Positions 1 through 22,438 of a DNA stretch of 35,625 nt are shown piece after piece. How positions within the stretch are numbered: position 1 is the first letter of the stretch; each line of letters starts with the position of its first letter. This DNA is from a virus: the IMG/VR virus record IMGVR_UViG_3300005607_000407, one strand, 5' to 3'. A program made the position numbers and the translations under genes. The notes beneath the pieces were generated by a model. The model had not been told where the DNA came from. It was given only the letters and a program-made list of their open reading frames with translations, and did no database searches.

Positions 1-369
1 ATGGCACAGGAACAAGTTACCACACAGGCTCGAGTGTCATCAGATAGCCATCAATCTCCAGCTAAAGACAAGCTTGATGATCATATAAACAAGTTGTCGT
101 TTGACCTGGTATATCATGCTGAACAACATACCCTCAAAGGCTATTTCAATACATTTTGCGCAGAGTGTATTTACTGGGCCGCCAAGGTGGCTCAACACCC
201 AGAGGTCTGGCAAGAAGAATATGCAAAAAGTCAGGCCCGCTACCTGCGAGCTATCCAGCCTGAAATCATAAACTATTGCATTGCAAAAATCAACGAAAAC
301 TACAATCTGCCTCTGAAGGCGCGTGAAATGACAGTGCAGGAATACCTGCAGGTGGCCGGTCAGCAATGA
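1..369 (+). CDS. Hypothetical protein (first early gene)
   Basis: 122-aa ORF coupled to the next gene by an ATGA overlap. No recognisable motif. Confidence 0.65.
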   Translation: MAQEQVTTQARVSSDSHQSPAKDKLDDHINKLSFDLVYHAEQHTLKGYFNTFCAECIYWAAKVAQHPEVWQEEYAKSQARYLRAIQPEIINYCIAKINENYNLPLKAREMTVQEYLQVAGQQ

Positions 370-1220
370 CTGACAAGAAGCTGATCGCCTTCCACGGCAA
401 GCAGGCCGTCAAGGACCTATACATCGCTCGTATGAAAGCCCACATGGTCGCAGACGAGCTAATACAGGGAACAGGATGGGCAAAGCGGGGAGCGGGAAAA
501 TATCAAGGTTGTGCAGTCGGATGCACTGTTAACAAATACGACCACTTCGCATACGAGACAGAATTGGGTATGCCCGCTGCAATAGCGCAGATCGAGGATA
601 GCATATTTGAGCATCTAAAATGGGAGCAAGCCAAGCAATGGCCGCTGCGCTTTCTTGAAGTAATTCCAGTCGGTGCAGACCTATCAAGAGTATCAGCGCA
701 ATTTCAATACTGGTTGATGTTAGAGAATCTGAAACATGAAAAGTTTTGGCGAGAACATGACAAGAAAAAAGAATATACAGACAAAGTTGTGGGTGCGATA
801 AAGCAAGTTGCTGAATTGCTGAAGAAATGGGCTGAGACAGGATTGATAGACGAGTCTGCTGCTAGGTCTGCTGAGTCTGCTGCTAGGTCTGCTGCTAGGT
901 CTGCTGCTAGGTCTGCTGCTAGGTCTGCTGCTAGGTCTGCTGCTAGGTCTGCTGAGTCTGCTGCTTGGTCTGCTGCTTGGTCTGCTGCTGAGTCTGCTGC
1001 TAGGTCTGCTGAGTCTGCTGCTAGGTCTGCTGCTTGGTCTGCTGCTGAGTCTGCTGCTAGGTCTGCTGAGTCTGCTGCTTGGTCTGCTGCTTGGTCTGCT
1101 GCTTGGTCTGCTGCTAGGTCTGCTGCTTGGTCTGCTGAAAATGAATTTTACATCAAAATCTCTAACAAACTTTTGGAGCTTTTGTCGCAAGCTCCGGTCA
1201 TGGAGGCGAAGTCTAATTGA
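366..1220 (+). CDS. Phage-type protein with SAA(R/W/E) tandem repeat
   Basis: N-terminus (GCAVGC..YETELG..LEDSIFE..WPLRFL..IPVGADLS) resembles a widespread uncharacterised phage family that carries Ala/Ser/Trp repeats. 95-aa repeat block. Confidence 0.85.
   Translation: MTDKKLIAFHGKQAVKDLYIARMKAHMVADELIQGTGWAKRGAGKYQGCAVGCTVNKYDHFAYETELGMPAAIAQIEDSIFEHLKWEQAKQWPLRFLEVIPVGADLSRVSAQFQYWLMLENLKHEKFWREHDKKKEYTDKVVGAIKQVAELLKKWAETGLIDESAARSAESAARSAARSAARSAARSAARSAARSAESAAWSAAWSAAESAARSAESAARSAAWSAAESAARSAESAAWSAAWSAAWSAARSAAWSAENEFYIKISNKLLELLSQAPVMEAKSN
855..1139 (+). repeat. Coding tandem repeat: 25 units of TCTGCTGCT(AGG/TGG/GAG) or TCTGCTGAR
   Basis: 20 twelve-nt units and 5 nine-nt units with identical codon choice throughout. 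Confidence 0.97.
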
Positions 1221-1708
1221 GTCAGCAATCACGGCCACTCTGCCCACCATTTCAGAAGACTAACGAGAATGGTCGATACTGGGCAAAGACAGACGACCTT
1301 GGAAAACTTCCTGCCGAACTTGTATCTAAACTGGCCGTTTCACTCAATTCGCCAGGCGGTGAGTGGATAGAATTTCAAGGATACTTTTACAGAGCTGAGG
1401 CCAGCAAGGACGGCAAGAGCAAGTTTTTCGTCCAAAAATCGAAAGAAGAGCTAGAGGCAGACAAGAACAGGCAGCAGGGAAGAGGATTTAAGAAATTTGG
1501 TGGAGGTCCCAGACATCCCACGATAGAAGCTTTCGATGTGGCCACCACGGTGCAGGAAGTGAACGCTCTCATCCTGTCAGGCTTCCAGCCAGTCTGGGGT
1601 GAAAATGGCCTGCAGGTAGGAACATTTGCGAAGAAAGTGGCCGCTGATGCACCCGAAGCTGACGTGATAAACGGCCTGTTCATGGTAAAGCCTAAAAAAT
1701 CAGATTAG
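1217..1708 (+). CDS. Hypothetical protein (TTG start)
   Basis: 163-aa ORF, TTGA overlap with the upstream stop. Confidence 0.7.
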   Translation: MSQQSRPLCPPFQKTNENGRYWAKTDDLGKLPAELVSKLAVSLNSPGGEWIEFQGYFYRAEASKDGKSKFFVQKSKEELEADKNRQQGRGFKKFGGGPRHPTIEAFDVATTVQEVNALILSGFQPVWGENGLQVGTFAKKVAADAPEADVINGLFMVKPKKSD

Positions 1709-2032
1709 GTGATTTTCATGCAATCGAAATCAGAGGAAGAAGTATTCTCCGAGTCTAACATAGTGAAAAAACTGGCTGAAATCGATCTGAGATTGAATAC
1801 GATAAGAGCGGTGGCCGCTGAATCGCAGAACAGGCAGGAGCTGGCCGTTCTGGATGCGGCCACTTTTGCAATCGATATCGCTAGGGCGCATTTCTACAAG
1901 CTGGAAAGGGAGCAGCTAAAAAAAGACCTACTCTGGCTTCACGATTTTCTAACCGACCCTAATCAGCTAGAAAACCTGGGTGGTCTAATAGCCGCTAAAA
2001 GATTGTTTCATGACATTGTAAAGGTGTTATGA
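1709..2032 (+). CDS. Hypothetical helical protein
   Basis: 107-aa ORF abutting both neighbours. GTG start at 1709 or ATG at 1718. Confidence 0.7.
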   Translation: MIFMQSKSEEEVFSESNIVKKLAEIDLRLNTIRAVAAESQNRQELAVLDAATFAIDIARAHFYKLEREQLKKDLLWLHDFLTDPNQLENLGGLIAAKRLFHDIVKVL

Positions 2033-2965
2033 ATGGTTGAAAAGAAGAAATTCGATTCGCTGGAGATACTGCTCGACAAGGCGGCTCTTGTCATCAAAAA
2101 GGCTCCCACTCCGCAGGCTGCAATTGATGTGTTGCAGGAGCTAGCGGCAGATCTGGAAACAGAGAAGCTGGTGGCGACAGAGGATATCTGTTCATTCCTC
2201 ATCTCCAAACTCGCTGAAAAAACCGGCAAGAACGAGAGGTGGTTTAGGAAATATCTCGATGCAAAGTACAAACACTCTCAACAGCAAGAGAAGAAGAAGA
2301 AAGAGAAAGATTCTGAACTGAAAAAGCGGGCAGAAGTGGCCGAAAATGAAATCTGCAAAAGAGAGGTCTGCGGCCACAACCGAGCTAGTCATGGTGATGG
2401 CGGCCGCTGTCATGAGAAGAAATGTCGCTGTACGCTATTTCTCTCCGAGCTGGATAGGACCATAGTAATTGATGATGGCCGGCCACTTTTGCAACAACTC
2501 CTGTATGGCAAGGAACTGCCAGAGGACGATCCGCATCGTCCAGTTCAGCTGGCGCTAAAACAGTATAGAAAAGATGCAGAACATTACGACAAGCTGGCAA
2601 ACGACTGGAAGCTTGCAAGAGACAATGCTCTCGACAGGATAGAAGAGCAGAAAAAAGAAATTGCTAGGCTAGAAGAGGAGCTAGCGACAAGGGCATCAAA
2701 AGAGGATTCTGAGAAAATCGACCTCTTGAAGTGCCAGATTGAAGAGTACAAAGCAGAAGTGGCCGATCTGAAGGACCAGCTGGCAAAAGCTCAGTTCACC
2801 ACAGCGGATAAAATCCTCGACTTTTGGATCTTTGTCCCTCGCAAAAAAGTAGGTGAAATAGCGGCCACTATCGACAAGATGAACTGGGACAAGAAGCAAT
2901 CAGGCTTTTCGATTAGAACAGATGGCAAGTTTGCAACAGGATTCAAGGTTGGAGAGCCAACATGA
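2033..2965 (+). CDS. Coiled-coil protein with Cys/His metal-binding cluster and possible N-terminal HTH
   Basis: CKREVCGHNRASHGDGGRCHEKKCRC motif and long charged heptad regions. Confidence 0.75.
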   Translation: MVEKKKFDSLEILLDKAALVIKKAPTPQAAIDVLQELAADLETEKLVATEDICSFLISKLAEKTGKNERWFRKYLDAKYKHSQQQEKKKKEKDSELKKRAEVAENEICKREVCGHNRASHGDGGRCHEKKCRCTLFLSELDRTIVIDDGRPLLQQLLYGKELPEDDPHRPVQLALKQYRKDAEHYDKLANDWKLARDNALDRIEEQKKEIARLEEELATRASKEDSEKIDLLKCQIEEYKAEVADLKDQLAKAQFTTADKILDFWIFVPRKKVGEIAATIDKMNWDKKQSGFSIRTDGKFATGFKVGEPT

Positions 2966-3459
2966 CCGTTTTTTACGGCGAAAAAATCGAAGTGGTGGCC
3001 GTCAATCTCGAAACACAAACGGCCACTTGCAAAATATCGATGGTGGAGATAGACGGCAGGGATATGGATACTCAAGCTGCTATGAGCATGTTAGGTCCAG
3101 AAGAGCAGAAGAAATTGCAGAAAGAGCTTGCCAGGCGCAAGGCCAAAATCGAGAAATACAATCCCTCCATGTCTCCGAGCAAAAACAATAGCAAATTCGG
3201 CGGATACGGCGGTTCGAGAGAACGGGAATTACCGCTCTCGAAGCTGCTGAGTGGCCGTGAAAAGGCCGAGCTGCGCAACATCATGCGCAGGGTCAGGAAA
3301 GGACACACAGCCGAACTCATGCGCTACTACGGCACAACAAGCCTGAATGAAATACTCGAAAAATTCTACTCAAGTCTAAAGAAAAATCCTCGCATCAGGA
3401 GAGTGGTGGGGATTGATAGCACGGGATGCCTGTGCATGGAGCTACGGACGATAAAATGA
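2962..3459 (+). CDS. Hypothetical basic protein
   Basis: 165-aa ORF with ATGA coupling at both ends. Confidence 0.7.
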   Translation: MTVFYGEKIEVVAVNLETQTATCKISMVEIDGRDMDTQAAMSMLGPEEQKKLQKELARRKAKIEKYNPSMSPSKNNSKFGGYGGSRERELPLSKLLSGREKAELRNIMRRVRKGHTAELMRYYGTTSLNEILEKFYSSLKKNPRIRRVVGIDSTGCLCMELRTIK

Positions 3460-3668
3460 GTGGAGTGGCTGAACCAGCAGAGATGGTCAAGTTCAAACCG
3501 ATTTCGGAGATAGAAGAGCAACGCAAGCAGCTCGAATCAATCAGAACTGATGTGGAGAAAAAATTGATGGAGCTTGACCATATTGCCAAGCAAATGAGAG
3601 AGCAAGAACAGAACATCAAGTATGCTTCAGACATCATTAATGAAAAGCTGGGCGACATTCTGGAATGA
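3456..3668 (+). CDS. Small coiled-coil protein
   Basis: ATGA overlap at 3456 preferred over the track start at 3426. Heptad-rich. Confidence 0.7.
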   Translation: MSGVAEPAEMVKFKPISEIEEQRKQLESIRTDVEKKLMELDHIAKQMREQEQNIKYASDIINEKLGDILE

Positions 3669-4078
3669 CTGAAGGCGAACGACACTCCAAAGCTGTTGCA
3701 AGAGTCAAAACAATGTTGATACTCGAAAACTACCACATCTACGAAAATGACTATTCGAGAGGCTGGGGTGGCTACAAATTTCCGACAATAATGACAGACA
3801 AAGGTCCAAAAGGATGGACGGCCGACATTTTCGTTCAATCGAAAAGTGGCCGTTGCTTTGTTGTAGAGATAGACGGCCACCTGGCAGGCCAGGGCCACTT
3901 TAGCAAACACAACCAGATTGACGACGATTTCAGAGACGAAACATTGCAAAAATTCGGCGTAGCGACAGTCAGGCTCGACGTGGATTGGCTAGTGGGCAAA
4001 GAGGCGCAAAGTGACGAGCAAATCATGCGAGAGATAAGGCATTGGCTCGACAAGAAATTCCAAATTTGTCTAAACTAG
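3665..4078 (+). CDS. DUF559 / Vsr-like (very-short-patch-repair fold) endonuclease
   Basis: WTADIF..FVVEIDG..H..D..RDETLQKFGVATVRL matches the DUF559 pattern (ADF..VIEVDG..H..D..RD..L...G..V.R). Confidence 0.85.
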   Translation: MTEGERHSKAVARVKTMLILENYHIYENDYSRGWGGYKFPTIMTDKGPKGWTADIFVQSKSGRCFVVEIDGHLAGQGHFSKHNQIDDDFRDETLQKFGVATVRLDVDWLVGKEAQSDEQIMREIRHWLDKKFQICLN

Positions 4079-4083
4079 TATCC

Positions 4084-4284
4084 ATGGCAAAGGCGGTTGG
4101 ATGCAATGGCATCTGTCTGCAATACAAAACCAGTTACAAGTGGATTGAAGATGATCACTGCTATTGCGGACACTGCGCAGTACATATGGTTATACCACGT
4201 TTACAACTTCGCTGCCACTGCTGTAATCGCAAATTGCACAGACGGTCGCACAGATCCTCGCACAGACAAATCAAAAGGATTTAG
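4084..4284 (+). CDS. Small Cys-rich Zn-binding protein
   Basis: CNGIC..CYCGHC..CHCC followed by a basic tail. Start uncertain (TTG 4066 or ATG 4084). Confidence 0.7.
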   Translation: MAKAVGCNGICLQYKTSYKWIEDDHCYCGHCAVHMVIPRLQLRCHCCNRKLHRRSHRSSHRQIKRI

Positions 4285-4293
4285 CTAGCTAGT

Positions 4294-5094
4294 TTGAGCC
4301 TCGAAGGTTACTCTGAAGAATTTCTCAAGCAGATGCAGGCCGACTACCAGCTCTACACGAGGGAAGAGCCTGCAGAGTTCAGATCGGCCACCACTTTGGG
4401 TAAACAACTCTACAAGGCAGAAGATGTCAAGAAGGTGGCCGATGAAGTGATTCAAAAACTCGGCCACTTTGTCTACCAGTGGGAGCTATGCGGCGGTGTC
4501 AGAAGAGGCAATCCGATGGTGCATGACGGCGACTTAGTAGTCTGGCTGAGGTATGATCCAGAACCGGATACGATGATGTCATTCAAGCACAAGCTGGTGG
4601 AGATATTGAAGGACCAGGTGCAGGAGGGCAGCATTCGCTTCATGGATGAAGAGTTGAAAAAGTCAGAAGAGGAGACAGAAGATGATGGCGGTAAAAAGAA
4701 AAAGAGAAAAGCTCGCAAGAGTAAGAATGTGGCCAAGCCTAAAGAGCGGAAAATCTACAAGTTCTGGTACAATTCGATACCGCTTGAAATCAACATTGCC
4801 AAGACGGAGCAGCAGTTTGAAGTCTTGAAATTCATCAGGACGGGAACTGCCGACTTTCACCGCAATCTTCTGATTGAATCACAAAATCAAGGAATGACAA
4901 TTCGCTTCTCACATGACGATGAACTTGACATGGACCTCTATGGTCTCTACGGAGCTGTCCGCTCTTTTGCAGCTGACAAGAAAGGCAGGAGGAAATCAGT
5001 GTGGATTGTCAACCCTGCAAGGTTGGAGGCGTGGCGAGAGCGAGACATCATCGAAAAAGTGTTAGGCGAATATGTCGAGCCTGCCGACAGGTAG
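4294..5094 (+). CDS. polX: Minimal family X DNA polymerase (palm + thumb only)
   Basis: CGGVRRG..HDGDLVV corresponds to GS.RRG..GD.D, IRTGTADFHR to YFTGS..FNR, and ERDIIEKVLGEYVEPADR to E.DIF..LG..YI.PE.R. Confidence 0.88.
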   Translation: MSLEGYSEEFLKQMQADYQLYTREEPAEFRSATTLGKQLYKAEDVKKVADEVIQKLGHFVYQWELCGGVRRGNPMVHDGDLVVWLRYDPEPDTMMSFKHKLVEILKDQVQEGSIRFMDEELKKSEEETEDDGGKKKKRKARKSKNVAKPKERKIYKFWYNSIPLEINIAKTEQQFEVLKFIRTGTADFHRNLLIESQNQGMTIRFSHDDELDMDLYGLYGAVRSFAADKKGRRKSVWIVNPARLEAWRERDIIEKVLGEYVEPADR

Positions 5095-5102
5095 ACTTAT
5101 TT

Positions 5103-5321
5103 TTGAACAACAAAACTAAATGTAAATACTGCCGTCTATGCGGCGGCGAATTTGAGGGAGAAAAGAGAATGGAACATCTGATAGAAAAGCATGGCATGCC
5201 TGCACCGGCGAGTAGGATGATGAAACAATACAGGATATCAAGGTTGTTTTCAAAAAATCCGGTAGACTGGAGCAACCAAATTGAATTCTACATCGGTGGC
5301 AAAAAGTGGGTCGAGAGGTAA
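5103..5321 (+). CDS. C2H2-type zinc-finger protein
   Basis: CRLC..MEHLIEKHG. TTG start at 5103 chosen because the track start at 5001 overlaps PolX. Confidence 0.7.
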   Translation: MNNKTKCKYCRLCGGEFEGEKRMEHLIEKHGMPAPASRMMKQYRISRLFSKNPVDWSNQIEFYIGGKKWVER

Positions 5322-5352
5322 AGATGATGTCTATACCTAGCACTATACCAAG

Positions 5353-5580
5353 TTGACTCTGTATCCGGAGAGGTGTTACAAATGCGGTGCAACAGTATAT
5401 GTCACTCACATCTATCCAGATGAGGACGAGCGCAAGCAAACTGGGATCCAGGTTGATGTGGTCTCTGAAGATTCCACAAAATTTCTTGGCTATGTTTGCT
5501 TTGTATGTGCAGATAAGATACCAAACAGCAGCCTTGGCTATCCACCATGGACTTTGCAAATCTATCCGGAGAAAAAATAA
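5353..5580 (+). CDS. Zn-ribbon protein
   Basis: CYKC...CFVC, TTG start. Confidence 0.7.
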   Translation: MTLYPERCYKCGATVYVTHIYPDEDERKQTGIQVDVVSEDSTKFLGYVCFVCADKIPNSSLGYPPWTLQIYPEKK

Positions 5581-5586
5581 TACAGT

Positions 5587-5742
5587 TTGAATAGCGAGTC
5601 TTGGACTAGAGACAAAGGTTACTCTCAATACAACGTTCTAAGAAGCAAGAGAAGGTGTGTTGTGTGTGGCAAAGAGTTTGCTTCACTGCCAGCTATATTT
5701 CAACATAGGAAGAAATTTGACCATTATGGCAAGAGATACTAG
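5587..5742 (+). CDS. Small C2H2 zinc-finger protein (51 aa, below the ORF-track cutoff)
   Basis: Own translation: MNSESWTRDKGYSQYNVLRSKRRCVVCGKEFASLPAIFQHRKKFDHYGKRY. It fills the gap exactly. Confidence 0.7.
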   Translation: MNSESWTRDKGYSQYNVLRSKRRCVVCGKEFASLPAIFQHRKKFDHYGKRY

Positions 5743-5748
5743 ATAGAT

Positions 5749-6168
5749 TTGGCAAAGCCAGCTAAAGACACAACAAGCATAACCGCCAGGATAGACACGG
5801 CCACTCTGAAAGAGCTGGACGGAGTGGTGGCCGCCCGCACAAAGGAAAGACCAGGCCAAACCTACACGCGCACAGATGCACTGGCTGAAATCCTGCCTCT
5901 TGGCCTCAAGGCTCTGCAAAATCCCAAGGCTCTTGAAGTGGGAATCATAGTTATAAAACATATCGACAAGATAGAGGATCCATTGCTGGTGGCCGAGCTG
6001 AAAGAGCAGTTGAGAGAAAGGCAGATAGTCGATTATGTCGCAAGTCTGACACATGATCAGCTTGACGCTTTAGCCACTATCGTGTTTGACGAGATGCGGC
6101 TGAGAGCAGACAAGCCGCCTCTATCGATGCTGCCGCCTTCTGAGAAACGAGCGCTCATTTTAAAGTAA
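5749..6168 (+). CDS. Ribbon-helix-helix DNA-binding protein
   Basis: TSITARIDTATLKELDGVVA..TRTDALAEIL has the RHH strand-helix-helix pattern. Confidence 0.7.
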   Translation: MAKPAKDTTSITARIDTATLKELDGVVAARTKERPGQTYTRTDALAEILPLGLKALQNPKALEVGIIVIKHIDKIEDPLLVAELKEQLRERQIVDYVASLTHDQLDALATIVFDEMRLRADKPPLSMLPPSEKRALILK

Positions 6169-6190
6169 ACCGCCAAAATCAAGAGCAGAG

Positions 6191-8221
6191 ATGTCAAAAC
6201 AGGAGGCCACTATCGCTGGATGGAAAGACGAATGCGAATACTGGATTGACAACTTTATCGAAGGTGGCCGTCTTGTGTATTTTGAGCAGATGACACAGCT
6301 ACAAACCCTGCAACATCCCGTTTTCAAGGTCAAGCACTATCATCTATCGCCACAGCTGACCACTCTTCTACTGAATGAAGCGGCCACTTTCTTTGAAGCG
6401 ATGAAAGCGGCCATCATCGGCCACTTTGAAACAAAAGGAGAGGTCGAGTTTGTCAATCTTCTGAAGCGCCAGCTAGAGATAGAAGTCTATGAGCTGCCGC
6501 CAGTCAAGCGCCTTGACCGCACAATGCTTGACAAGTTCGTAGCGCTAGGCCCCTGCCAGGTCCACGCTATCGAGTCTCTTCAGCATATCAAGACCAGGCT
6601 AGTTTATCGCTGCTGGCATTGTGGCGAGCTGTCAAGGACAAAATCAAAGTGCGAGCATTGCGAGGAAAAAGACCTTGAAGAAGAAGTGGCCGCCGACAAC
6701 CTGCAAGACCAGCGCTACATCGAGGTCATAGTTTTAGATCAGAATGGAATGGCCACCGACAAATCACTGAAATACTGGCTGGATATTAGGGGCCAGAAGG
6801 CGTTCGAAACGCCGGATTTTGGCGAGACATGGATAGTGTCAGGATTTGTCAGATTATCAAAGAATGAAGATAAGCAGCCAGTCGGCTCTGTGCAGACATT
6901 CTTTCTCTATCTCGAAATTAACAGCATCCAGAAGGTGGCCACGGCCACCAAGGAGAAAGTGGCCGTTACGCCCGAGCTGGTGGCCGTCCGCAAAAAATGG
7001 GTGGCCGACTTGCAGAGGCAGGGAAAAGACGTAGAAGCCGAGCTGGTGTCAAAGCTGGCTCCCTCTATCGTGGGAGAAGACTTGTTGAAACTATCACTAC
7101 TCAGGCAGGCAGTAAGTGGCGCTGTCGAAAACGTGGGAGAGCGGACAGATATCCACATCCTTGTGCTGCGCAACCCTGGCCGAGCTAAAACGGATCTGGC
7201 TATGTACATGTCAGGCCTCACAAGTGGTGGCTATGTCGATTCAGCTGGAGCCTCTGCAGTGGGGTTGGTGGTGGGGCTAGAACCAGACGAGCGAACAAAA
7301 AAGAAAGTGGCCAAAGCTGGGGCCGCCGTATTGTTCAACGGCCACCCAATCTATCTTGATGAGGTGGACAAAATCAAGCGTGAATACCTATCGCAACTCA
7401 ATACACCTCTCGATAAGGGATTCTACCAGGAGACCAAGATATTGAACAAAAGATTTGAAACGGCCAGCCCGTGGGCGGTATTTGGTAATTTCAAGGCTAA
7501 AAAATATGATTCGAAACAGAGTTTAGCCTGGAACATCAATCTGCCGGAGGATTTTCTTGACAGGATAGATCTGTACCATATAGATCCAAGCTCAGCATAT
7601 AATGAAGAGCTGGAAAATGCCATAATGGATGCACAGAGCGACCGCTTTGAAAAAGGGACGGAAAAAATAGTTATCGATCCAGAGCTGAGAGAGCATATCG
7701 CTTGCGCTCGCTCCATCAAGGAAATCAAGTTCGAGTCAGGAGTGAGGGAAGTTTTCAAGTCATTTCAGAAAGATATGAAAAAGCTGGAGCAGGCGTTGGA
7801 TTCCGGCATCAAATTTTCAAACAGGCAATTCAACGGCTTGTGGCGTCAAGCTATCGCTCGTGCAGTATTGCATCTGAGAGATACAGTAACAAAGGATGAT
7901 GCAGAGCAGGCTATCAAGCATGTCACTACAATCATCGCAAAAGTTGGCATAGATCCGAGGACTGGTGAAATTGATTTAGGCGTGCTGACAGGGACGCAGA
8001 AAAGCAAGATGGAGCTACTAAAGGCGTTCAAGCAAATCTTTCTCTTTCTCTGTGCAGGCGACAGATTTGCAGACATTTCACGAGAAAAACTGATAGACCA
8101 GCTGCAAAAGCAGGGTTGGATAAAAAATGTCTACGAAGCTTCAGAGCTGATAGATGATGCAAAAAAACAAAGGATGATAATGGAAACCAGCAAGGATAAT
8201 TTCCGATGGATTAAAGGCTGA
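6191..8221 (+). CDS. mcm: MCM replicative helicase
   Basis: Zn finger CWHC..CEHC, LAPSIVG, Walker A variant RNPGRAKT, Walker B IYLDEVDK, Arg finger FLDRID, sensor-2 SNRQ..LWR, C-terminal winged helix. Confidence 0.96.
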   Translation: MSKQEATIAGWKDECEYWIDNFIEGGRLVYFEQMTQLQTLQHPVFKVKHYHLSPQLTTLLLNEAATFFEAMKAAIIGHFETKGEVEFVNLLKRQLEIEVYELPPVKRLDRTMLDKFVALGPCQVHAIESLQHIKTRLVYRCWHCGELSRTKSKCEHCEEKDLEEEVAADNLQDQRYIEVIVLDQNGMATDKSLKYWLDIRGQKAFETPDFGETWIVSGFVRLSKNEDKQPVGSVQTFFLYLEINSIQKVATATKEKVAVTPELVAVRKKWVADLQRQGKDVEAELVSKLAPSIVGEDLLKLSLLRQAVSGAVENVGERTDIHILVLRNPGRAKTDLAMYMSGLTSGGYVDSAGASAVGLVVGLEPDERTKKKVAKAGAAVLFNGHPIYLDEVDKIKREYLSQLNTPLDKGFYQETKILNKRFETASPWAVFGNFKAKKYDSKQSLAWNINLPEDFLDRIDLYHIDPSSAYNEELENAIMDAQSDRFEKGTEKIVIDPELREHIACARSIKEIKFESGVREVFKSFQKDMKKLEQALDSGIKFSNRQFNGLWRQAIARAVLHLRDTVTKDDAEQAIKHVTTIIAKVGIDPRTGEIDLGVLTGTQKSKMELLKAFKQIFLFLCAGDRFADISREKLIDQLQKQGWIKNVYEASELIDDAKKQRMIMETSKDNFRWIKG

Positions 8222-8606
8222 GTGGCCACCGAACAAGTCCAGCAAGAAAAGCAGAAGGGGCCACGATCCTACTACGGCCGCTGGATAGCCAATCAGCGAG
8301 CTTCTGAAATTCAGAAATGGGGGGGGGCGCTGCCAGGTATGTGGCAACTCAACCTATGACGAGCTAGAATTTGCCCACGTCAAGAAAACTGACCTTTCAG
8401 GAAGAAGCAGCCGTGGCTCTTTCGCTAGGCTCAAGGATGTCAGGAACAATCCAGACTGCTACAGATTGATGTGTGAAACCTGCCATAATGGATTTGACAA
8501 CGAAACAAACCCCGAGATTCAAAAAATCTACAAGGAAATCTTGAAGGTGGCCGAAATTCCCAATCCTCCTACTCCTACACCTGCACCAACGGCCACTTCC
8601 GCCTAG
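8222..8606 (+). pseudogene. HNH endonuclease interrupted by a +1 frameshift in a G9 run (8319-8327)
   Basis: With G8 the frame is open for 127 aa: WGGRCQVCG..LEFAH..N..LMCETCHNGFD (HNH/Zn-finger pattern). It fills the gap between the MCM stop and the next start exactly. Confidence 0.85.
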
Positions 8607-8810
8607 GTGGCCGAGAAAATCTGCATGTGTTGTCAGAGGATTATAAAAAATGGTGAGAATGTCGGCATTTGTAACGACTGTCTTGCTCAGCTGAGAGATG
8701 TGTTTGGAGTCAAGATAAAGCGAAAAGAAGTTTGGTATCGATTATCAGAAAATCCGATTAGATGGATCAAATGCGAATGGAATTTTCAGGGCAGAAAGAA
8801 AGGTTGCTAA
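8607..8810 (+). CDS. Small Zn-finger protein
   Basis: CMCC...CNDC, GTG start directly after the previous stop. Confidence 0.65.
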   Translation: MAEKICMCCQRIIKNGENVGICNDCLAQLRDVFGVKIKRKEVWYRLSENPIRWIKCEWNFQGRKKGC

Positions 8811-8822
8811 CAGAAGACTGAA

Positions 8823-8984
8823 TTGGTAACCAACACAGACAAATTCTACAAAAAGTTCAGGAAGATGCCCTGCCCTGTCTGCGAGAAGCCGATATCGAGA
8901 CATAGTAGAGATGAGGCTATAAAATGCGCTTTCAAGATGGTAGCTGCGCAGATGAAAGCGATGGAGCAGGACAATAACAGTTAG
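8823..8984 (+). CDS. Small Cys/His protein (53 aa, not in the track)
   Basis: Own translation: MVTNTDKFYKKFRKMPCPVCEKPISRHSRDEAIKCAFKMVAAQMKAMEQDNNS. Confidence 0.6.
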   Translation: MVTNTDKFYKKFRKMPCPVCEKPISRHSRDEAIKCAFKMVAAQMKAMEQDNNS

Positions 8985-9176
8985 TTGACCAGGCCAGACC
9001 AAATCCTGTACTCTGTTTGTTGCGTTTTCTGTCACAACAACTACAAGACTACCACTCAGAGAATGAAACGACATTTGCGAGAATGCCCGGGCGTCACCGG
9101 CCATAGAAGCTATCTTTTCAGATGTGTCAGACCAGCTTCCATTCTAGCTTTGCAAAAGCGGAAAGTGGAATATTGA
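8985..9176 (+). CDS. Small C2HC zinc-finger protein
   Basis: CVFC..MKRHLREC motif. Confidence 0.65.
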   Translation: MTRPDQILYSVCCVFCHNNYKTTTQRMKRHLRECPGVTGHRSYLFRCVRPASILALQKRKVEY

Positions 9177-9192
9177 TACACACAGAAACACC

Positions 9193-9222
9193 TAAATATA
9201 ACACTATACATAATGTATAGTG
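9193..9222 (+). promoter_or_regulatory. TATA-like box (TAAATA) plus perfect 21-bp palindrome CACTATACAT-A-ATGTATAGTG (operator O1)
   Basis: 10-bp arms at 9202-9222, 8 nt before the ATG at 9231. A near-identical copy lies at 10151. Confidence 0.8.
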
Positions 9223-9230
9223 ACTATAAC

Positions 9231-9410
9231 ATGCCAAATACCACACAGGCAAACGAAAACAAGTCAAAAGAAGAATTGGAACACAATGCTTTTTGTCCCT
9301 TCTGCAATTCTGAGCGGCTGGGTGTTGATGTTTCAATTCTCGAACCGTCTGCCACTGAGCAGTGGATGTGGTGGGCCAGACATGAAAAGTTCATGGGGGC
9401 AAGACAGTAA
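9231..9410 (+). CDS. Small hypothetical protein (CPFC motif)
   Basis: ATG 9231 preferred because the track start at 9213 lies inside the palindrome. Confidence 0.6.
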   Translation: MPNTTQANENKSKEELEHNAFCPFCNSERLGVDVSILEPSATEQWMWWARHEKFMGARQ

Positions 9411-9646
9411 TGGGTACGAATTGGGATAGATACCGAAACAGCGAACAAGCCGAAATCCCTCCAGCTTTTAGCCACTCTGTCAAGATTGAGCAGACGGGTA
9501 AGGGCGCAAGAATCACTGTACATGTCTTCGCCAGCAGCTCAGAATCTGCAATACAACAGGCGCTGGAGATGTACGGAGCGACGAAAAAGTACCTTGAGCT
9601 GAAAGGTGAGGTAGTGGCCCCTATCGAAGTGGGTAAGAAGGAGTAG
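9410..9646 (+). CDS. Hypothetical protein
   Basis: 78-aa ORF, TAATG coupling. Confidence 0.7.
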   Translation: MGTNWDRYRNSEQAEIPPAFSHSVKIEQTGKGARITVHVFASSSESAIQQALEMYGATKKYLELKGEVVAPIEVGKKE

Positions 9647-9653
9647 ATCACAA

Positions 9654-9875
9654 GTGGCCGAGCATGAATATCACCACGAGGGAGACGGATCGGCCACTAT
9701 CTCCATCAAGGCTCTATCTTTCATCACAGCTCCAAACGGCCAGCGGTCTGTCATCCTTGATATTAATGGCGAAACTATTGTTATGCACGAATGGAGCAAG
9801 AAGGCAAAAACTATAACTGTGGACGCTCAGGTGAAAGCTTCCGGATACATCGAAGTGCTTCCAAGATATGCCTGA
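9654..9875 (+). CDS. Hypothetical beta-rich protein
   Basis: 73-aa ORF with GTG start, in operon context. Confidence 0.65.
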   Translation: MAEHEYHHEGDGSATISIKALSFITAPNGQRSVILDINGETIVMHEWSKKAKTITVDAQVKASGYIEVLPRYA

Positions 9876-10149
9876 GACGAAAAAAGAAAAACAAAAGCAG
9901 AAACAAACCCCAAGCTACCGCTCAATAGCAATAATGACCGTAGTGAAAAAGTGGCCGACTGGCGGATGCTATGCCAGGGTGCCGAAAGATTGGATCGGCC
10001 ACCGAGCGGCCTTCTACCTACCTGATAAAGTGGCCGTTGAAATCGTTCACGGCCTGGGCAAAGACAAGAGCCACGCCTATGTGGCCAGGATCCCCTGCGA
10101 GCTGGCAGGCAAAGAAATCAAAATCGAACTAAAAGATACAATTAAATAG
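9868..10149 (+). CDS. DUF2080/AbrB-like swapped-hairpin DNA-binding protein, internally duplicated
   Basis: VVKKWPTGGCYARVPKDWIGHRAAFY and IVHGLGKDKSHAYVARIPCELAGKEIKIE are two copies of the V...G....VPK.WIG..V pattern. Confidence 0.6.
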   Translation: MPETKKEKQKQKQTPSYRSIAIMTVVKKWPTGGCYARVPKDWIGHRAAFYLPDKVAVEIVHGLGKDKSHAYVARIPCELAGKEIKIELKDTIK

Positions 10150-10171
10150 CCACTATACGTAACGTATAGTG
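10143..10171 (+). promoter_or_regulatory. TATA-like box (TAAATA) plus perfect 21-bp palindrome CACTATACGT-A-ACGTATAGTG (operator O2) upstream of the tRNA
   Basis: Arms at 10151-10171. Differs from O1 by one compensatory base pair. Confidence 0.8.
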
Positions 10172-10195
10172 TCGGGTGCAAGCCCGACAAAAAGC

Positions 10196-10279
10196 GCCGG
10201 CGTCGCCTAATGGTATGGCGAGCGCCCCCTAAGCGCTTGGGTGTTCAACCCCTTAAGGGTTCGAATCCCTTCGCCGGCG
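10196..10279 (+). tRNA. Type II (long variable arm) tRNA with a Ser-like body and anticodon CCT (Arg)
   Basis: Acceptor GCCGGCG/CGCCGGC with G73, D-arm GCC-TAATGGTAT-GGC, anticodon stem AGCGC/GCGCT with loop CCCCTAA, V-arm GGGT/ACCC, T-arm AAGGG-TTCGAAT-CCCTT. CCA not encoded. Confidence 0.92.
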
Positions 10280-10285
10280 CTTAAA

Positions 10286-10307
10286 TCTTTCCTTTCCTTT
10301 CCCTTTC
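10286..10307 (+). terminator. Pyrimidine (U-rich) terminator after the tRNA
   Basis: TCTTTCCTTTCCTTTCCCTTTC directly downstream of the tRNA, typical of archaeal U-tract termination. Confidence 0.65.
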
Positions 10308-10332
10308 AAAAAAGAGAACGGCCACCACTGTG

Positions 10333-10338
10333 TTTAAA
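10333..10338 (+). promoter_or_regulatory. TATA box TTTAAA for the 10367 gene
   Basis: Canonical archaeal TATA about 30 nt upstream of the ATG. Confidence 0.55.
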
Positions 10339-10366
10339 TTTACGATGTTTTAGAATTTGACTGGGG

Positions 10367-11332
10367 ATGGCAGAGGCTTATGTTTCTGGAGCTAATTCAC
10401 GACAACCTAATGACATTGAGGCTGAAATCTTTTACCATCTTCAAGAAGCTGGCAACATAGCAAGTCGTGAGCTTGAGTCTGACATCAATCTGAACAACAT
10501 CCAGACAAAAAGCTATCACATCCGTAAGGCGGCCGAAGCTGCAGAGCAGGCAGGGTGGCCGAAAAAAGAAATATCTAAACGACTACTTGAACTGATATTC
10601 AAACACGATTATAACATCAGTCGTAGTCTTGTTTATCGTATTTGCTCACCACTAGGTTATTCCGAATCCGATTCTGAACTAGATCAGTCAAGTCCAATGA
10701 TTGGACAAGAAAATAGTTCTATATATACTGCTTTTGAACAGGAAAACGAGCAACTGATAACACAGATAGAAAAAGAGATCGACATCAAGAAAGCGATCAT
10801 TTCGAAGCTCAGAACATCTGCATTTCTTACAAAGATACCCCGTGAAGAGCGCAAAGAATTACTGTACTGCTACGCAGTTCATAACAAAAATATTGGCATG
10901 GAGTGGGATGGCCGAAAAGACGTTTCTGAAAGACAGTATTTCATTCTATACGAAGCATCAACAGCTGCAATAAATGACAAGGTCACAGAGCTGTACATCA
11001 AGATGGTCAAGGATTGGAAGCCGCTGACAGGCAAGCAATATCACAAACTGAAAGTCGGAATAACAAGAATGATCCACCCGCTTTTTGAGCCGAAGAACCA
11101 ACAGGAGGCGATCGACAGGGGCTTCTACGGAATACAATGCCGGTGTGGCTCCTGGCGTGTCCTGATTGAAAAAGAACCTACGAAGGAATTCAAAGTGCAG
11201 TGTTGCAAATGCCAGCTTATCTTCGAACCGAAGACAGAAACGTTTAGCGCGAAGAACTCTATCATACTGGACGAAAAGATAAACACAGTTCTGACAAACT
11301 ACGATGATTTCAAGAAGAACAACGGCTATTAA
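10367..11332 (+). CDS. Hypothetical protein with possible N-terminal HTH and C-terminal Zn ribbon (candidate late activator)
   Basis: CRCGS...CCKC near the C-terminus. Located between the early and packaging modules. Confidence 0.7.
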   Translation: MAEAYVSGANSRQPNDIEAEIFYHLQEAGNIASRELESDINLNNIQTKSYHIRKAAEAAEQAGWPKKEISKRLLELIFKHDYNISRSLVYRICSPLGYSESDSELDQSSPMIGQENSSIYTAFEQENEQLITQIEKEIDIKKAIISKLRTSAFLTKIPREERKELLYCYAVHNKNIGMEWDGRKDVSERQYFILYEASTAAINDKVTELYIKMVKDWKPLTGKQYHKLKVGITRMIHPLFEPKNQQEAIDRGFYGIQCRCGSWRVLIEKEPTKEFKVQCCKCQLIFEPKTETFSAKNSIILDEKINTVLTNYDDFKKNNGY

Positions 11333-15401: not shown

Positions 15402-16334
15402 ATGAAATTAATTCACTGGATAAACCCGACTGCGGCCACTTCGGGGATGTATTCTTACATTGCTCAGTGTATTCGTGTCGCTAACCAGCTCGGCCACCAT
15501 GCTACCTATGCTTATTGCAACAGGCCTGAGCCTGAACCTGCCGTATTGATGCATTACGGCGCTGTTCTGGAGACAGTGTCCCACAAAACAGCTGAAGAAA
15601 AAGATTGTATCAACATCATTCACTCCGGCATTCCTGCCAACTTTAACAGGTTGCCAAACAAAGTATTCGAAACCCACGGCACACCACGGTGGATCATGAA
15701 AGACTGGGATGCCCTGAGCTATACGTCATTCATGGCAAAGAACTGCTCGCTAGTAGTTACAAGATGGCCGTCACAGGTTCCCTACTGGCAGGCCTTGACT
15801 GACAAGCCGGTGAAGACGATACCACCCGGTGTTGACCTCGAACTATGGAAGCCAGACGGGCCAAAAAAAGAATTCACAAATCACCCGCTGATTCTGTGGG
15901 CAGATACATGGCGTGAGGGACTGAAGGAGCCATGGGAGCTTCTATATGCGTTGAAGATGATAATGCGGGAGATACCATCGATCACTCTCAAGCTGGTCAA
16001 TATCCCTTCTGAAAAAATGGATTTGCTGCACTATTTCATTGGTGTGCTTGGCATCGGATCGGCGATTGAATGGCCTGTCGAAGCTAGAGTGCAGAACATC
16101 GCAGAATACTACAGGACCGCCGATTGGGTATTTTCTGCGCATGGTGAAGGGAGCAATGTAACGTGGGAGGCGCAAGCCTGCGGGGCAAAGATAGGATTTG
16201 GAGATGTGTCATCTGAAGCAATCGCCAGGCAAATACTGAGAGACGAATATGACCCAGCGGAAGAAGAAAAACCTGATCTTCGAAAAACCATTGAATCACA
16301 AGTGAATATTTTTGAAAATCTTGCATGTATATGA
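15402..16334 (+). CDS. GT-B fold glycosyltransferase (GT4-like) 1
   Basis: TIPPGVDLELWKP and YYRTADWVFS..EG..WEAQACGA match GT4 signature motifs. Confidence 0.85.
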   Translation: MKLIHWINPTAATSGMYSYIAQCIRVANQLGHHATYAYCNRPEPEPAVLMHYGAVLETVSHKTAEEKDCINIIHSGIPANFNRLPNKVFETHGTPRWIMKDWDALSYTSFMAKNCSLVVTRWPSQVPYWQALTDKPVKTIPPGVDLELWKPDGPKKEFTNHPLILWADTWREGLKEPWELLYALKMIMREIPSITLKLVNIPSEKMDLLHYFIGVLGIGSAIEWPVEARVQNIAEYYRTADWVFSAHGEGSNVTWEAQACGAKIGFGDVSSEAIARQILRDEYDPAEEEKPDLRKTIESQVNIFENLACI

Positions 16335-17103
16335 CATAGCAGGTGTCGCCTGCATCCTCGCCAGATGGACCAGAAAGGCAGGCCATGAATCGCAGGTCAT
16401 AAATATGTACGATCCTTTTGGATTTTGTGATTTTTATTGTGAAGAAAGAATTGCAGACGAGAAAGCATTTGTTGACCGAGTTTTGCAGGCAGGCAAAGAT
16501 TATGATATCTTACACGTCCATACAGTCTACCGCATTTTACCAAGGCTGGCCGAACTGCGCAAGCCTGTAATAATGCACTACCATGGCTCCGAACTGGCAC
16601 AATCGCAGGGGGATCCGTTCAGGGAGTGGTGCGAGCAGTTTGCAAACAAAATTCTGGTAGCTAATGAATATCTGATGAAATACCACGATAGAGCGCAATG
16701 GCTGCCAAATCCAGTTGATACAAAACATTTCAAGCCAACGCAGGGTGATAAGAAAAATGCGTCACTCATGTTTGATATTCCCTACATAGATTATGAAAAA
16801 ACACTGAGTGAGTTGCCACACGATATCCGTGGTAATGTAGTTGTAGCGAACAGGCTAAAGCGACCTGTACGCTATGGAGATATGCCACTATTGCTGAACG
16901 AATACAGCAATTACATCGATATCAAATATCACAGATATCAAGGCCTCCTGCCCGCCCTCTCCAAAACGGGATTAGAAGCGCTGTCCTGCGGTCTGTCGGT
17001 GTTGAACTGGAAGAAAGAATGGGTTAAAGGACTACCAGGACATCATAAACCAGAATCGGTAGTTAGTTCCCTTCTGGATGTTTATGAAAATCTTCTCGTC
17101 TAA
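16312..17103 (+). CDS. GT-B fold glycosyltransferase (GT4-like) 2
   Basis: MKILHV, DILHVH, HYHGSE, LPNPVDTKHFKP and LEALSCG motifs. Confidence 0.85.
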   Translation: MKILHVYDIAGVACILARWTRKAGHESQVINMYDPFGFCDFYCEERIADEKAFVDRVLQAGKDYDILHVHTVYRILPRLAELRKPVIMHYHGSELAQSQGDPFREWCEQFANKILVANEYLMKYHDRAQWLPNPVDTKHFKPTQGDKKNASLMFDIPYIDYEKTLSELPHDIRGNVVVANRLKRPVRYGDMPLLLNEYSNYIDIKYHRYQGLLPALSKTGLEALSCGLSVLNWKKEWVKGLPGHHKPESVVSSLLDVYENLLV

Positions 17104-17110
17104 CCAACCA

Positions 17111-18478
17111 ATGCCAAATCCTATTGCATCGGAAGTATCAACAGACCAGCAAGGCAGACTGTTCATCAAAACATTCCTCATTGACAGTTCTGTCAACCAG
17201 AATGATTGGGGCGTCACACAGGCTTCAATCCGGCAAAACATCGGATCATTCATTGGCAAGCCTATCGTCTTTACAGATACTTTTGATCATCCCAGTCTAG
17301 ACGATTCAAACCTTGACCACGTTCTGAAGTCGCAGGAACCCTATCGAGTTGGCACTATCAGAGATGTTCAGGAAAAAGATGGTAGATGGTTTGCAATTGC
17401 AGAGATAACCGACCCTGCTTACCGTGCAGGAGTTCAGGCTGCCAACATTCCACCTTTCGTCTCGCCTGCTATCTATCCAACCGCGCCGGTGAAAAATGAA
17501 GCTGCTATAGAGAGGTGGACAGGCGTTCACCTGGCCACAGTGGACCAACCTGCATACGGCGCAGTAAAGGCGCATATCACATCGCAATGCACGGGAAGCG
17601 AGCGGGATTGTCTGCTACAATTGAGAAACGCCAAGCTCAAGAAAGCAAAACAACAACAGAAAGATATACAAGATTGCGGATTCTGCAAGGCAGCTGCAAT
17701 CAAAAACTATTATGCCAAACTTCGATTAATAATTAATTCTAGTCAGAAAAAACTACCAAAGGATAATTCTCTTTTTCGCAAAAGCAGAACTGCACGTACA
17801 TCCAAGATGGATTCTTCTTCAAGTCAAACAGATAATGGCCGCCCCACTGCAAACGGGTTGGCCGAGAAATATGCGAGTGAACACAATCCACATCCTTCAA
17901 CAGAACCGGATAGTGGACCTTCACATCCTGACAACACTTCCTTAGATCAGGCCGATGCCACCGATGGCGATACTGGCACAGGGCCAGAGGCATGGCAGCA
18001 ACAGAAAAAGAAAAAGACTGCTGATGCAGAGGCTGACGCTGATGCCGAAGGCGAAGGCGGCGACTCTGATGTTGTTCCAAAGAAGCAAAAGATTGCTCAG
18101 CTAGAAGTTGAAAATGCCCGCCTCAAGCAGGAGGTCGCCAAGCTCAGGTCAGAAGCCAAGGTGGCAAAGGACTTGCAGAGCAGGGTAGCCAAGCTAGAAA
18201 GCGAGAACAGACGTCACAGGATCGCAGGCATAATCACCAAAGACGTTATCCGTGATGACAAATCACGCACTGCACTCATTGACAAGCTGACAGCCATGAA
18301 CCTGTCAGAGCCGGATTTCCAGACCATCGTGGCGCCTTATGTAGCTTCTGCAAAAGACAGGAAGACATACGAGGCCAAGGTCAGGACCGCTAGCACATTC
18401 CCATATGACAGTATGAATTTTGAATCCGAATCTAACGGCGACAAGCAATTGGCATTCATGCCAGGAGTTGACGTCTGA
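17111..18478 (+). CDS. Prohead protease fused to scaffolding domain (Mu gpI-like)
   Basis: FIGKP..DH..VGTI..AEIT..FVSPA..HLATVDQPAY resembles Mu-type protease motifs, followed by an acidic linker and coiled coil. ATG 17111 preferred over 17078. Confidence 0.8.
   Translation: MPNPIASEVSTDQQGRLFIKTFLIDSSVNQNDWGVTQASIRQNIGSFIGKPIVFTDTFDHPSLDDSNLDHVLKSQEPYRVGTIRDVQEKDGRWFAIAEITDPAYRAGVQAANIPPFVSPAIYPTAPVKNEAAIERWTGVHLATVDQPAYGAVKAHITSQCTGSERDCLLQLRNAKLKKAKQQQKDIQDCGFCKAAAIKNYYAKLRLIINSSQKKLPKDNSLFRKSRTARTSKMDSSSSQTDNGRPTANGLAEKYASEHNPHPSTEPDSGPSHPDNTSLDQADATDGDTGTGPEAWQQQKKKKTADAEADADAEGEGGDSDVVPKKQKIAQLEVENARLKQEVAKLRSEAKVAKDLQSRVAKLESENRRHRIAGIITKDVIRDDKSRTALIDKLTAMNLSEPDFQTIVAPYVASAKDRKTYEAKVRTASTFPYDSMNFESESNGDKQLAFMPGVDV
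17807..18478 (+). CDS. Nested scaffolding protein (internal in-frame start)
   Basis: In-frame ATG (MDSSSSQ) at the domain boundary, 42 nt downstream of a copy of the late element. Confidence 0.6.
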   Translation: MDSSSSQTDNGRPTANGLAEKYASEHNPHPSTEPDSGPSHPDNTSLDQADATDGDTGTGPEAWQQQKKKKTADAEADADAEGEGGDSDVVPKKQKIAQLEVENARLKQEVAKLRSEAKVAKDLQSRVAKLESENRRHRIAGIITKDVIRDDKSRTALIDKLTAMNLSEPDFQTIVAPYVASAKDRKTYEAKVRTASTFPYDSMNFESESNGDKQLAFMPGVDV

Positions 18479-18984
18479 TGGTCGCAACAACAGGCGACAT
18501 ATTCGGCCAGACATGCGTAGTTGAATACCTGCCAAAAACTTCAGCAGCAATCAATGCTGGCGACCTCCTGCAGTATACATCAACCGGCTTCCAGACATGT
18601 CCACTAACGGCAAAACAGATAGGCCCTTGGGCTGTTGCGCTTGAGACCAAGGCCTCATCGACTACAGTAATCAAGGCTGTGCGCAACAAAGGTGCAATGG
18701 TGTATGTAACTGCAGATGGTGCAATCAATCCAGGGTCATACATAGTCAACAGCGCCGTAGCAACAGCGGGCTATGTGGTTGCGTATTCTGCCAACACTGT
18801 GACAAACGATACGGTTGGCATCAAAACTGCACGAGACGAAGCAAAACTGATAGTCGGAGAATATCTGGCTCACGAGCTTGAAGGCAACGGTGATTCAGAT
18901 GCAGCAGGCGCTTCAGGAGTTGCAGTAGCACCGACTGCGGCTGCGCAGGGTGATGTAATCAGGATTATGATAGGAGGTCTCTAA
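18478..18984 (+). CDS. Capsid cement/decoration protein (DUF2190-like)
   Basis: AINAGDLL...ADGAINPGSYI pattern, Ala/Gly-rich, between scaffold and MCP. Confidence 0.7.
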   Translation: MVATTGDIFGQTCVVEYLPKTSAAINAGDLLQYTSTGFQTCPLTAKQIGPWAVALETKASSTTVIKAVRNKGAMVYVTADGAINPGSYIVNSAVATAGYVVAYSANTVTNDTVGIKTARDEAKLIVGEYLAHELEGNGDSDAAGASGVAVAPTAAAQGDVIRIMIGGL

Positions 18985-18990
18985 GTCAAG

Positions 18991-20181: not shown

Positions 20182-20265
20182 CCTCCGGCAACGACCTTCT
20201 GTTTTCTTTCCTTGCTTTTTACTTCTCTTTTAGTTTTAATTATTAATTTTCTCCTGCATACATAA

Positions 20266-20844: not shown

Positions 20845-20865
20845 ACGAGTGATTGATGAAAAAAA

Positions 20866-21051: not shown

Positions 21052-21054
21052 GCG

Positions 21055-21405: not shown

Positions 21406-21451
21406 CAGTGGTTAGAAGTTCTCTTTTCCGTCCCTCAGGGCTTCTTCATGG

Positions 21452-22387: not shown

Positions 22388-22438
22388 ATGCCAGAAAAGA
22401 CTAATCTGATTGACTGATAGACAGGAGATGAAAGCACA

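Follow-up and report, generated by a model that had tools for sequence, protein, structure and literature searches.

Introduction

The origin of hyper-abundant DNA words such as HIP1 has been open for decades, and the main ideas have been functional selection and a ratchet driven by repair. Nick-and-fill enzyme pairs are known from Escherichia coli Vsr, which acts with Pol I, and from African swine fever virus (ASFV), which pairs its family X DNA polymerase (PolX) with an AP endonuclease and a ligase of its own. For HIP1 (GCGATCGC) of cyanobacteria, such a ratchet has been put forward as the origin (PMC4390886), and the 174-aa ASFV Pol X is expected to have a gap-filling role in repair (PMC5330486). 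This study concerns a 35,625-nt stretch of viral DNA (IMG/VR record IMGVR_UViG_3300005607_000407, hereafter the window) in which a small nuclease gene and a minimal PolX gene lie close together in an early gene module that is rich in the words RGTGGCCG and, more broadly, GTGGCCR. A first-pass annotation had proposed that the two enzymes form a short-patch repair pair that writes RGTGGCCG from near-matches. The data presented here show that the word phenomenon is genuine, as is its link with the early module. Comparisons with related genomes, however, do not support the Vsr-style writing of the word by the pair.

The locus shares features with each of the described systems and departs from each of them. 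As with E. coli Vsr (PDB 1cw0/1vsr) and Pol I, the window nuclease belongs to the same fold branch and is a small stand-alone enzyme, so that a nick-then-fill logic is conceivable. However, it has no sequence match to Vsr and its core is of the DUF559 type (D...E-x-D-G), it has no neighboring cytosine methyltransferase in the window, and the word statistics lack a T:G-to-C:G signature. To our knowledge, no activity has been established for the DUF559 family. The window nuclease resembles the DUF559 (PF04480), MTES_1575 and DUF2726 nucleases, NGO0050 and the catalytic domain of I-Bth0305I in its fold (Z 8.9-9.9) and in its conserved D, E-x-D and R, but it falls below every Pfam threshold, has a G-Q-G-H insert following the E-x-D-G motif, and comes from a family that is small, with some 104 cluster representatives.

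The window PolX, like ASFV Pol X, is a viral family X polymerase pared to its catalytic core, without the 8-kDa lyase domain and the HhH subdomain, and the nick-fill-seal job that the window pair may perform resembles the PolX repair system of ASFV. Unlike ASFV Pol X, it is about 90 residues longer, with an N-terminal extension, a lysine-rich insert and Glu as the third catalytic residue, and its genomic neighbors, in a tailed virus of archaea, include an MCM helicase and a PD-(D/E)xK nuclease. The word itself is similar to HIP1 in that it is enriched 10-30 fold, is mostly genic, occurs on both strands and is conserved beyond background, with one-off variants skewed to the outer positions and a palindromic form, GTGGCCAC, in relatives. 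Unlike HIP1, it is the property of a virus lineage rather than of the host, lacks symmetry in the window and has no cognate methyltransferase there, and its candidate causes all lie within one module of about 10 kb.

Results

The GTGGCCR word is virus-specific and conserved

RGTGGCCG occurs 49 times in the window (25 on the plus strand, 24 on the minus strand) where 1.25 occurrences are expected, and GTGGCCG occurs 53 times where 3.2 are expected. Forty of those 53 sites lie within positions 1-10600, which confirms both the enrichment and the word-richest arm described in the first-pass annotation. The motif-rich arm itself (352-10561) contains these 40 GTGGCCG sites, or 50 sites when counted as GTGGCCR, on both strands, nearly all in genes and often as close inverted pairs. 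In this arm 18 gaps between sites are 50 nt or shorter compared to 9 expected (P<0.0005), and 14 of the 18 are inverted; no close-pair clustering of the word was detected in the relatives.

The relatives are an IMG/VR contig (REL, covered by loci L007 and L089) and loci L090, L091 and L096. Their form of the word is GTGGCCR, and L091 and L096 favor GTGGCCA and the palindrome GTGGCCAC, which is present 9-14 times in each relative and only 3 times in the window. When RGTGGCCR was pooled over four genomes, 240 sites were found compared to 22 expected. A symmetric YGGCCR (EaeI-type) core was rejected because CGGCCG is not enriched, and the determinant is therefore the half-site GTGGCC.

The window is a tailed virus or provirus of soil Nitrososphaera (ammonia-oxidizing archaea). 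The same virus, its proteins 100% identical, is integrated in L001, a metagenome contig of 104 kb, and at L001:1-5500 cellular genes for AhpC, an aminotransferase, QueC/NAD synthase and LarC adjoin it. The top similarity of this LarC (66% identity) is to metagenome-assembled Nitrososphaera genomes, and it is this cellular flank with its Nitrososphaera-type LarC that identifies the host group. A host origin of the word was ruled out, since 410 kb of Nitrososphaeraceae DNA contained only 0.085 words per kb compared to 3.8 per kb in the left arm of the window, and the word was not found in the 5.5 kb of host DNA flanking the provirus.

Several simpler sources of the enrichment were also considered and rejected. 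An intergenic regulatory element does not fit because 52 of the 53 GTGGCCG sites are in coding sequence. Plus-strand sites are read as GTG-GCC in 20 of 26 cases and minus-strand sites as xCG-GCC-ACx in 15 of 26, so the word sits in the least costly frames (Val-Ala, x-Ala-Thr, Gly-His); a codon or dipeptide artifact was nevertheless rejected, as both orientations and several frames are enriched even though the cheapest are preferred. The word is not a piece of a longer repeat, given that its flanks are unconserved except for R at -1 and non-G at +1, and the equal use of both strands excludes a strand-biased signal such as Chi or KOPS. The sites are also retained over time: 19 of 37 window words were identical in REL compared to 17% of background 7-mers, which is about a threefold difference (P = 2e-6). 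The word is not named in a microbial context in the literature searched. A scan of IMG/VR for a three-site DNA pattern returned mostly high-GC phages at 3-5 fold over naive expectation, and no homologs of the early-module proteins were among them.

The early module is shared and the late module is exchanged

When the window was compared to REL by tblastx, the two were alike only in the early module (window 55-10194). No tblastx similarity was detected between window 10600-35625 and REL (L089 and L095), which amounts to a clean module swap between Nitrososphaera tailed viruses. REL is word-rich throughout, with 117 GTGGCCR sites compared to 5 for the reversed control. In the relatives of the late module of the window (L099-L101, with portal proteins 57-58% identical), 0, 0 and 1 GTGGCCR sites were found in 20 kb, whereas the late (structural) module of the window itself (15433-34735) has 15 where about 5-6 are expected. 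The simplest reading is that a word-free late module joined a word-rich early module and is now gaining sites. Since these sites are being gained in a module whose relatives are word-free, the cause of the word is probably encoded in the early module, where the candidates are the nuclease-PolX pair, an RHH protein, several Zn-finger open reading frames (ORFs) and the MCM helicase.

Near-matches are not depleted and no lineage-specific site is one central transition from its ortholog

Depletion of one-transition neighbors of the word had been named beforehand as a test of the proposal that a nick-and-fill pair writes RGTGGCCG from near-matches, and it was not observed in word-rich DNA. The observed/expected ratio (O/E) of neighbors with one transition in the GGCC center was 1.0-1.75 in the left arm, REL, L090, L091 and L096, and the RGTGGCCR neighbors pooled over four genomes numbered 54 compared to 47.6 expected. 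In the whole window alone, the four central-transition neighbors occurred 5 times compared to 14 expected. However, this deficit was confined to the late arm (O/E 0.44), and the word-free relatives of that arm had a similar value (0.52). The deficit is therefore a property of module composition and not a footprint of conversion, and neighbor depletion, which had vanished on pooling, was discarded as a signature.

The lineage-specific sites lead to the same answer. Fifteen window sites have no word at the homologous place in REL, and amino-acid changes are involved in 14 of them. The 14 sites listed with their REL counterpart differ from it at a mean of 3.3 of 7 positions, and none of the 15 is a single central transition away from its ortholog. 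Only two single-transition differences were found, and both have T in the window word and C in REL, which is the opposite of the direction of T:G-to-C:G repair. One-off variants of the word were enriched at positions 1-2 (O/E 2.0-2.5) and were at about 1.0-1.3 in the GGCC center.

Tracking of the word with the gene pair across relatives had also been named as a test. All five pair-bearing DNAs are word-rich, which agrees with the proposal, but nuclease homologs are also present in two word-free loci, L092 (6.2 kb) and L097 (2.3 kb). No word-rich relative without the pair was found among the relatives recovered, and the tracking test is therefore confounded by descent. No methyltransferase was found in Pfam scans of about 50 window ORFs, although the scan was not exhaustive, and the statement that the window encodes none was upheld to that extent. 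Among the relatives the methyltransferases differ, with a Dam-type enzyme in REL and a C5 fragment in L090. The latter is a 201-aa ORF just after MCM (L090:9564-10169) whose match to C5 cytosine methyltransferases is limited to their N-terminal third (E 1.9e-5), and it may be a truncated or split enzyme.

The nuclease is Vsr-like at the level of the superfamily

The plus-strand ORF at 3665-4078 encodes a predicted stand-alone endonuclease of 137 aa in the Vsr/DUF559 branch of the PD-(D/E)xK superfamily. According to VIA, the nearest structure to its AlphaFold2 (AF2) model (pLDDT 74) was I-Bth0305I (PDB 3r3p, Z 9.9), followed by Vsr (1cw0_A, Z 9.6 over 108 residues, root-mean-square deviation 3.1) and Neisseria NGO0050 (PDB 3hrl, Z 8.9), and R2 endonuclease and MunI were also among its nearest structural relatives. 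Foldseek gave weaker but agreeing matches to 1vsr and 1cw0 (probability 0.93-0.94). The core residues are D54, E68-x-D70-G, R90 and R103; D54, E68, D70 and both arginines are retained by at least 90% of 66 homologs, and in five close homologs they are invariant, as are H78, H82 and D91.

A profile search against 1.8 billion representatives recovered only 104 relatives, nearly all of them stand-alone proteins of 115-170 aa. Those family members whose contigs were examined sit in virus-like elements, and one member has a NUMOD3 motif. The only Pfam match of the nuclease itself was to DUF2726 (E 0.008, below the cut-off), and no NCBIfam match was found. When the 66 homologs were scanned with Pfam, DUF559 matched 21 (best E 1e-35), MTES_1575 matched 19 and DUF2726 matched 10. 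The sequence link to DUF559 is thus transitive, because only the homologs and not the window protein match that family. The Vsr model did not match the nuclease in Pfam (E<=1) or NCBIfam (E<=0.1) or any of the 66 homologs, and a sequence-only search of the PDB with the nuclease profile returned nothing meaningful. The original description of a DUF559/Vsr-like nuclease therefore stands at the superfamily level, where the modeled fold (Z 9.6-9.9) and the DUF559 matches of the homologs agree, but does not extend to membership of the Vsr family proper.

The gap of 215 nt between the nuclease and PolX genes had been reported correctly, along with the coordinates of the pair, and it contains one real gene. 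This plus-strand ORF (4084-4284) encodes a Cys-rich Zn-ribbon protein of 66 aa with a basic tail, and it is regarded as real because the ORF at the corresponding place in L007 shares 48% identity with it (E 1e-18). The public metagenome gene call at 4097-4288 (60 aa) is in the wrong frame, overlapping the Zn-ribbon frame that is conserved in the relative.

The polymerase is a minimal PolX with an altered third catalytic position

The plus-strand ORF at 4294-5094 (266 aa, TTG start) encodes, as first described, a predicted minimal family X DNA polymerase; it consists of palm and thumb only. In the palm motif G-G-x-R-R-G...D-G-D, which aligns to pol beta, residues G67, R70, R71, G72, D78 and D80 are invariant in four homologs, and the thumb motif T-G-T..F-H-R-N is invariant in the homolog alignment. 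The residues for dNTP and metal binding are likewise invariant in all four homologs. The top PDB sequence matches were to pol beta and included a C-terminal PolX motif that aligns to the end of pol beta. Foldseek placed pol beta and pol lambda first (E 2e-6), and VIA matched pol lambda over 384-547 (Z 12.6) and pol beta over 147-332 (Z 11.5), which is the palm and thumb span. Confidence in the PolX model is low (pLDDT 53), and weight was therefore laid on the sequence motifs. The structural matches begin at model residues 33-37, equivalent to pol beta 143-147, and the palm has only about 35 residues ahead of it; it is from this that the protein was concluded to be a minimal form; the 8-kDa lyase domain and the HhH DNA-binding subdomain of a canonical PolX are absent.

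The third catalytic position appears to be an invariant Glu (E165) in place of Asp (pol beta D256), an equivalence that was matched by hand from motif spacing, so that the triad would be D-D-E (D78/D80/E165). Altered catalytic triads are a mark of inactive prokaryotic PolXs (PMC9226535). The protein also has a lysine-rich insert at about residues 109-152 that is probably disordered.

The pair is part of a conserved block

A block with the order nuclease, (small ORF), PolX, (small ORF), RHH protein, MCM is present in the window, REL, L090, L091 and L096. Across the four relatives, identities to the window proteins are 36-67% for the nuclease and 51-79% for PolX. The MCM-family replicative helicase (6191-8221, plus strand), which anchors the early module, was identified by PF00493 (E 1.6e-21), phrog_10371 (E 1e-52) and alignment. 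Directly upstream of it is a putative DNA-binding protein of the RHH type (5749-6168, plus strand, 139 aa) that matches the transcriptional repressor family phrog_4738 (E 6e-5). This protein lies in a tblastx block aligning it with REL at 88.6% identity, and L090 and L091 have ORFs of similar size in its place.

More distant settings vary. In L092 the nuclease homolog directly follows a PCNA gene. The distant element P0009 (an ENA ERZ1761205 contig) encodes a nuclease with 46% identity, Dam, MCM, an integrase and a 164-aa PolX-thumb protein, whose gene (3182-3676) is five genes upstream of the nuclease so that the order of the pair is reversed relative to the window. The 164-aa protein matches only the PolX thumb domain and represents a still more reduced PolX from a module of this type. 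Contexts P0012, P0013 and P0015 were too short for use. When IMG/VR and JGI metagenomes were searched with MCM, portal, nuclease and PolX, the REL contig alone was recovered, and neither PolX, Vsr nor DUF559 is mentioned in the literature checked on mobile elements and viruses of ammonia-oxidizing archaea. The fixed place of the nuclease in the module argues against a wandering homing gene and suggests that the nuclease serves the replication or repair of viral DNA.

Discussion

The explanation favored here combines a set of early-module repair genes, among them a putative nick-and-fill pair, with a separate, selected word of two half-sites that is read by an early-module protein. Taken as a whole, this reading is held with about even confidence. 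The two proteins probably form a unit for nick-and-fill repair or processing. The nuclease would break one strand of the viral DNA where there is a lesion, a structure or a specific site, the mini-PolX would fill the short gap left behind, and a host ligase would seal it. GTGGCCR would be a virus-specific DNA signal distinct from this activity; some conserving force keeps it, and it is being acquired by a late module that came from a word-free lineage. Such a two-half-site signal would be read by a protein of the early module, with the nuclease, the RHH protein and the Zn-finger proteins as candidates. A selected signal is preferred over a by-product of T:G-to-C:G repair because of the placement of the word in the cheapest frames, the close inverted pairs and the presence of GTGGCCAC in relatives, and it is ranked first because inverted pairs and palindromes are predicted by selection and not by a pure mutational drive.

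Some observations weigh against this explanation. Sites would be conserved and gained under selection and under a repair-based drive alike, so the data are compatible with drive as well. The one-off variants at outer positions resemble the HIP1 ratchet pattern, and it was from a similar distribution of variants that Elhai argued for a ratchet of methyl-directed repair behind HIP1 (PMC4390886). All of the word-rich genomes belong to one clade, so shared descent confounds the linkage of the word to any single gene. The Glu at the third catalytic position of PolX, as read from the alignment, raises doubt about polymerase activity, and the low-confidence PolX model is a further weakness.

The bias introduced by Vsr repair in E. 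coli is modest and far below the 10-30 fold enrichment of the window word. This counts against the first-pass proposal, in which the Vsr-like nuclease nicks T:G in near-cognate sites and PolX refills them, so that biased repair writes and maintains RGTGGCCG with a methyl mark supplied by the host. The presence of Vsr within the three best fold matches of the nuclease, the conservation of the pair with every pair-bearing genome word-rich, the over-conservation of word sites and their gain in acquired DNA, and the neighbor deficit of the window taken alone would all fit it. However, neighbors are undepleted in word-rich DNA and the deficit of the window is that of its late arm, no lineage-specific site is a single central transition while nearly all alter protein, and both single-transition cases run the wrong way. 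The DUF559-type E-x-D-G core without a Pfam or NCBIfam Vsr match, the inconsistent methyltransferase content of the relatives and the word-free loci with nuclease homologs add to this, and on the sequence comparisons made here Vsr-style writing is very improbable. At the other extreme, the adjacency of the two genes could be functionally meaningless, with a homing-type, anti-host or recombination nuclease, a PolX that is independent or dead, and an unrelated word. The top fold match is indeed a homing endonuclease (I-Bth0305I) and one family member has the NUMOD3 motif, in P0009 five ORFs separate the two genes in reversed order, and the Glu at the third catalytic position casts doubt on polymerase activity (PMC9226535). 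Yet the place of the nuclease is fixed across 36-67% identity, unlike that of sporadic homing genes, and the dNTP- and metal-binding residues of PolX have been kept in all four homologs, which makes this explanation unlikely.

Another possibility is that the nuclease is a site-specific GTGGCCR nickase, with nicks on both strands, at inverted pairs or palindromes, giving 3'-OH ends for PolX or a host polymerase, or entry for MCM. The word would then mark dispersed starts of replication or recombination, or act as a self-mark of the MutH type, and a ratchet of the type proposed by Elhai could add sites. This would account for the inverted-pair and palindrome logic and for a word that travels with the early module, the nearest structural relatives of the nuclease are sequence-specific cutters or nickases (I-Bth0305I, Vsr, R2 endonuclease, MunI), the one-off variants lie at outer positions as in the HIP1 model (PMC4390886), and the nuclease adjoins PCNA in L092. 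But a 137-aa protein with no extra DNA-binding domain would have to read 7-8 bp, the word-free L092 and L097 carry nuclease homologs, and the RHH protein and the BED and further Zn-finger ORFs compete as readers. A nickase of this kind is considered distinctly unlikely, and less probable again is the bolder version in which an early-module system installs and maintains its own 7-8 bp word on any DNA joined to it, with the nuclease as nickase and the mini-PolX as resynthesis enzyme. In a ratchet variant, the nickase would read the word on one strand and resynthesis would copy it to the other. If this were true, the early module would be a self-contained word ratchet or self-marking system of a kind only postulated for cyanobacterial HIP1.

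In cellular genomes the factor responsible for such a word could lie anywhere, whereas here the word is private to a small virus lineage and absent from the host. The candidate readers or writers are narrowed to a few small genes, namely the DUF559-like nuclease, the mini-PolX, the RHH and Zn-finger proteins and MCM, whose products can be expressed and assayed on synthetic oligonucleotides. The region suggests a possible assayable role for a DUF559-like protein. For the minimal PolXs of archaea and archaeal viruses, which are largely untested, it supplies a nuclease partner and an MCM setting.

Other features of the genome

All of the sizeable ORFs of the window are on the plus strand. The left 10 kb encodes the MCM helicase and numerous small proteins, and the right two thirds encodes a tail tube protein, an HK97 gp10-like protein, a weak portal match and fiber-like proteins with Laminin_G_3 domains. 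No integrase gene was recognized within the window, and blastn against phage records returned nothing similar to it.

Very small Cys/His-rich ORFs occur in a run at 5353-5742 and 8607-9176, including a BED-type zinc finger ORF (8985-9176, E 2e-4) and a C2H2-like finger judged by eye (5587-5742). These could be sequence-specific DNA binders and are possible readers of the motif. Within ORF 366-1220 there is a 12-bp tandem repeat at 854-1137 (consensus GTCTGCTGCTAG, 24.7 copies, 86% matches) that would encode a four-residue protein repeat.

In the late module, the head genes embed a GT4-like glycosyltransferase (16312-17103) and a hexapeptide-repeat transferase (21055-21405), and the hexapeptide-repeat gene is also found in the late-module relative L099. 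Two adjacent tail-fiber-like proteins at 31377-33688 have Laminin_G_3/concanavalin-like lectin domains and probably function in receptor binding; their weaker Pfam match to the clostridial neurotoxin receptor-binding fold reflects only the common lectin fold.

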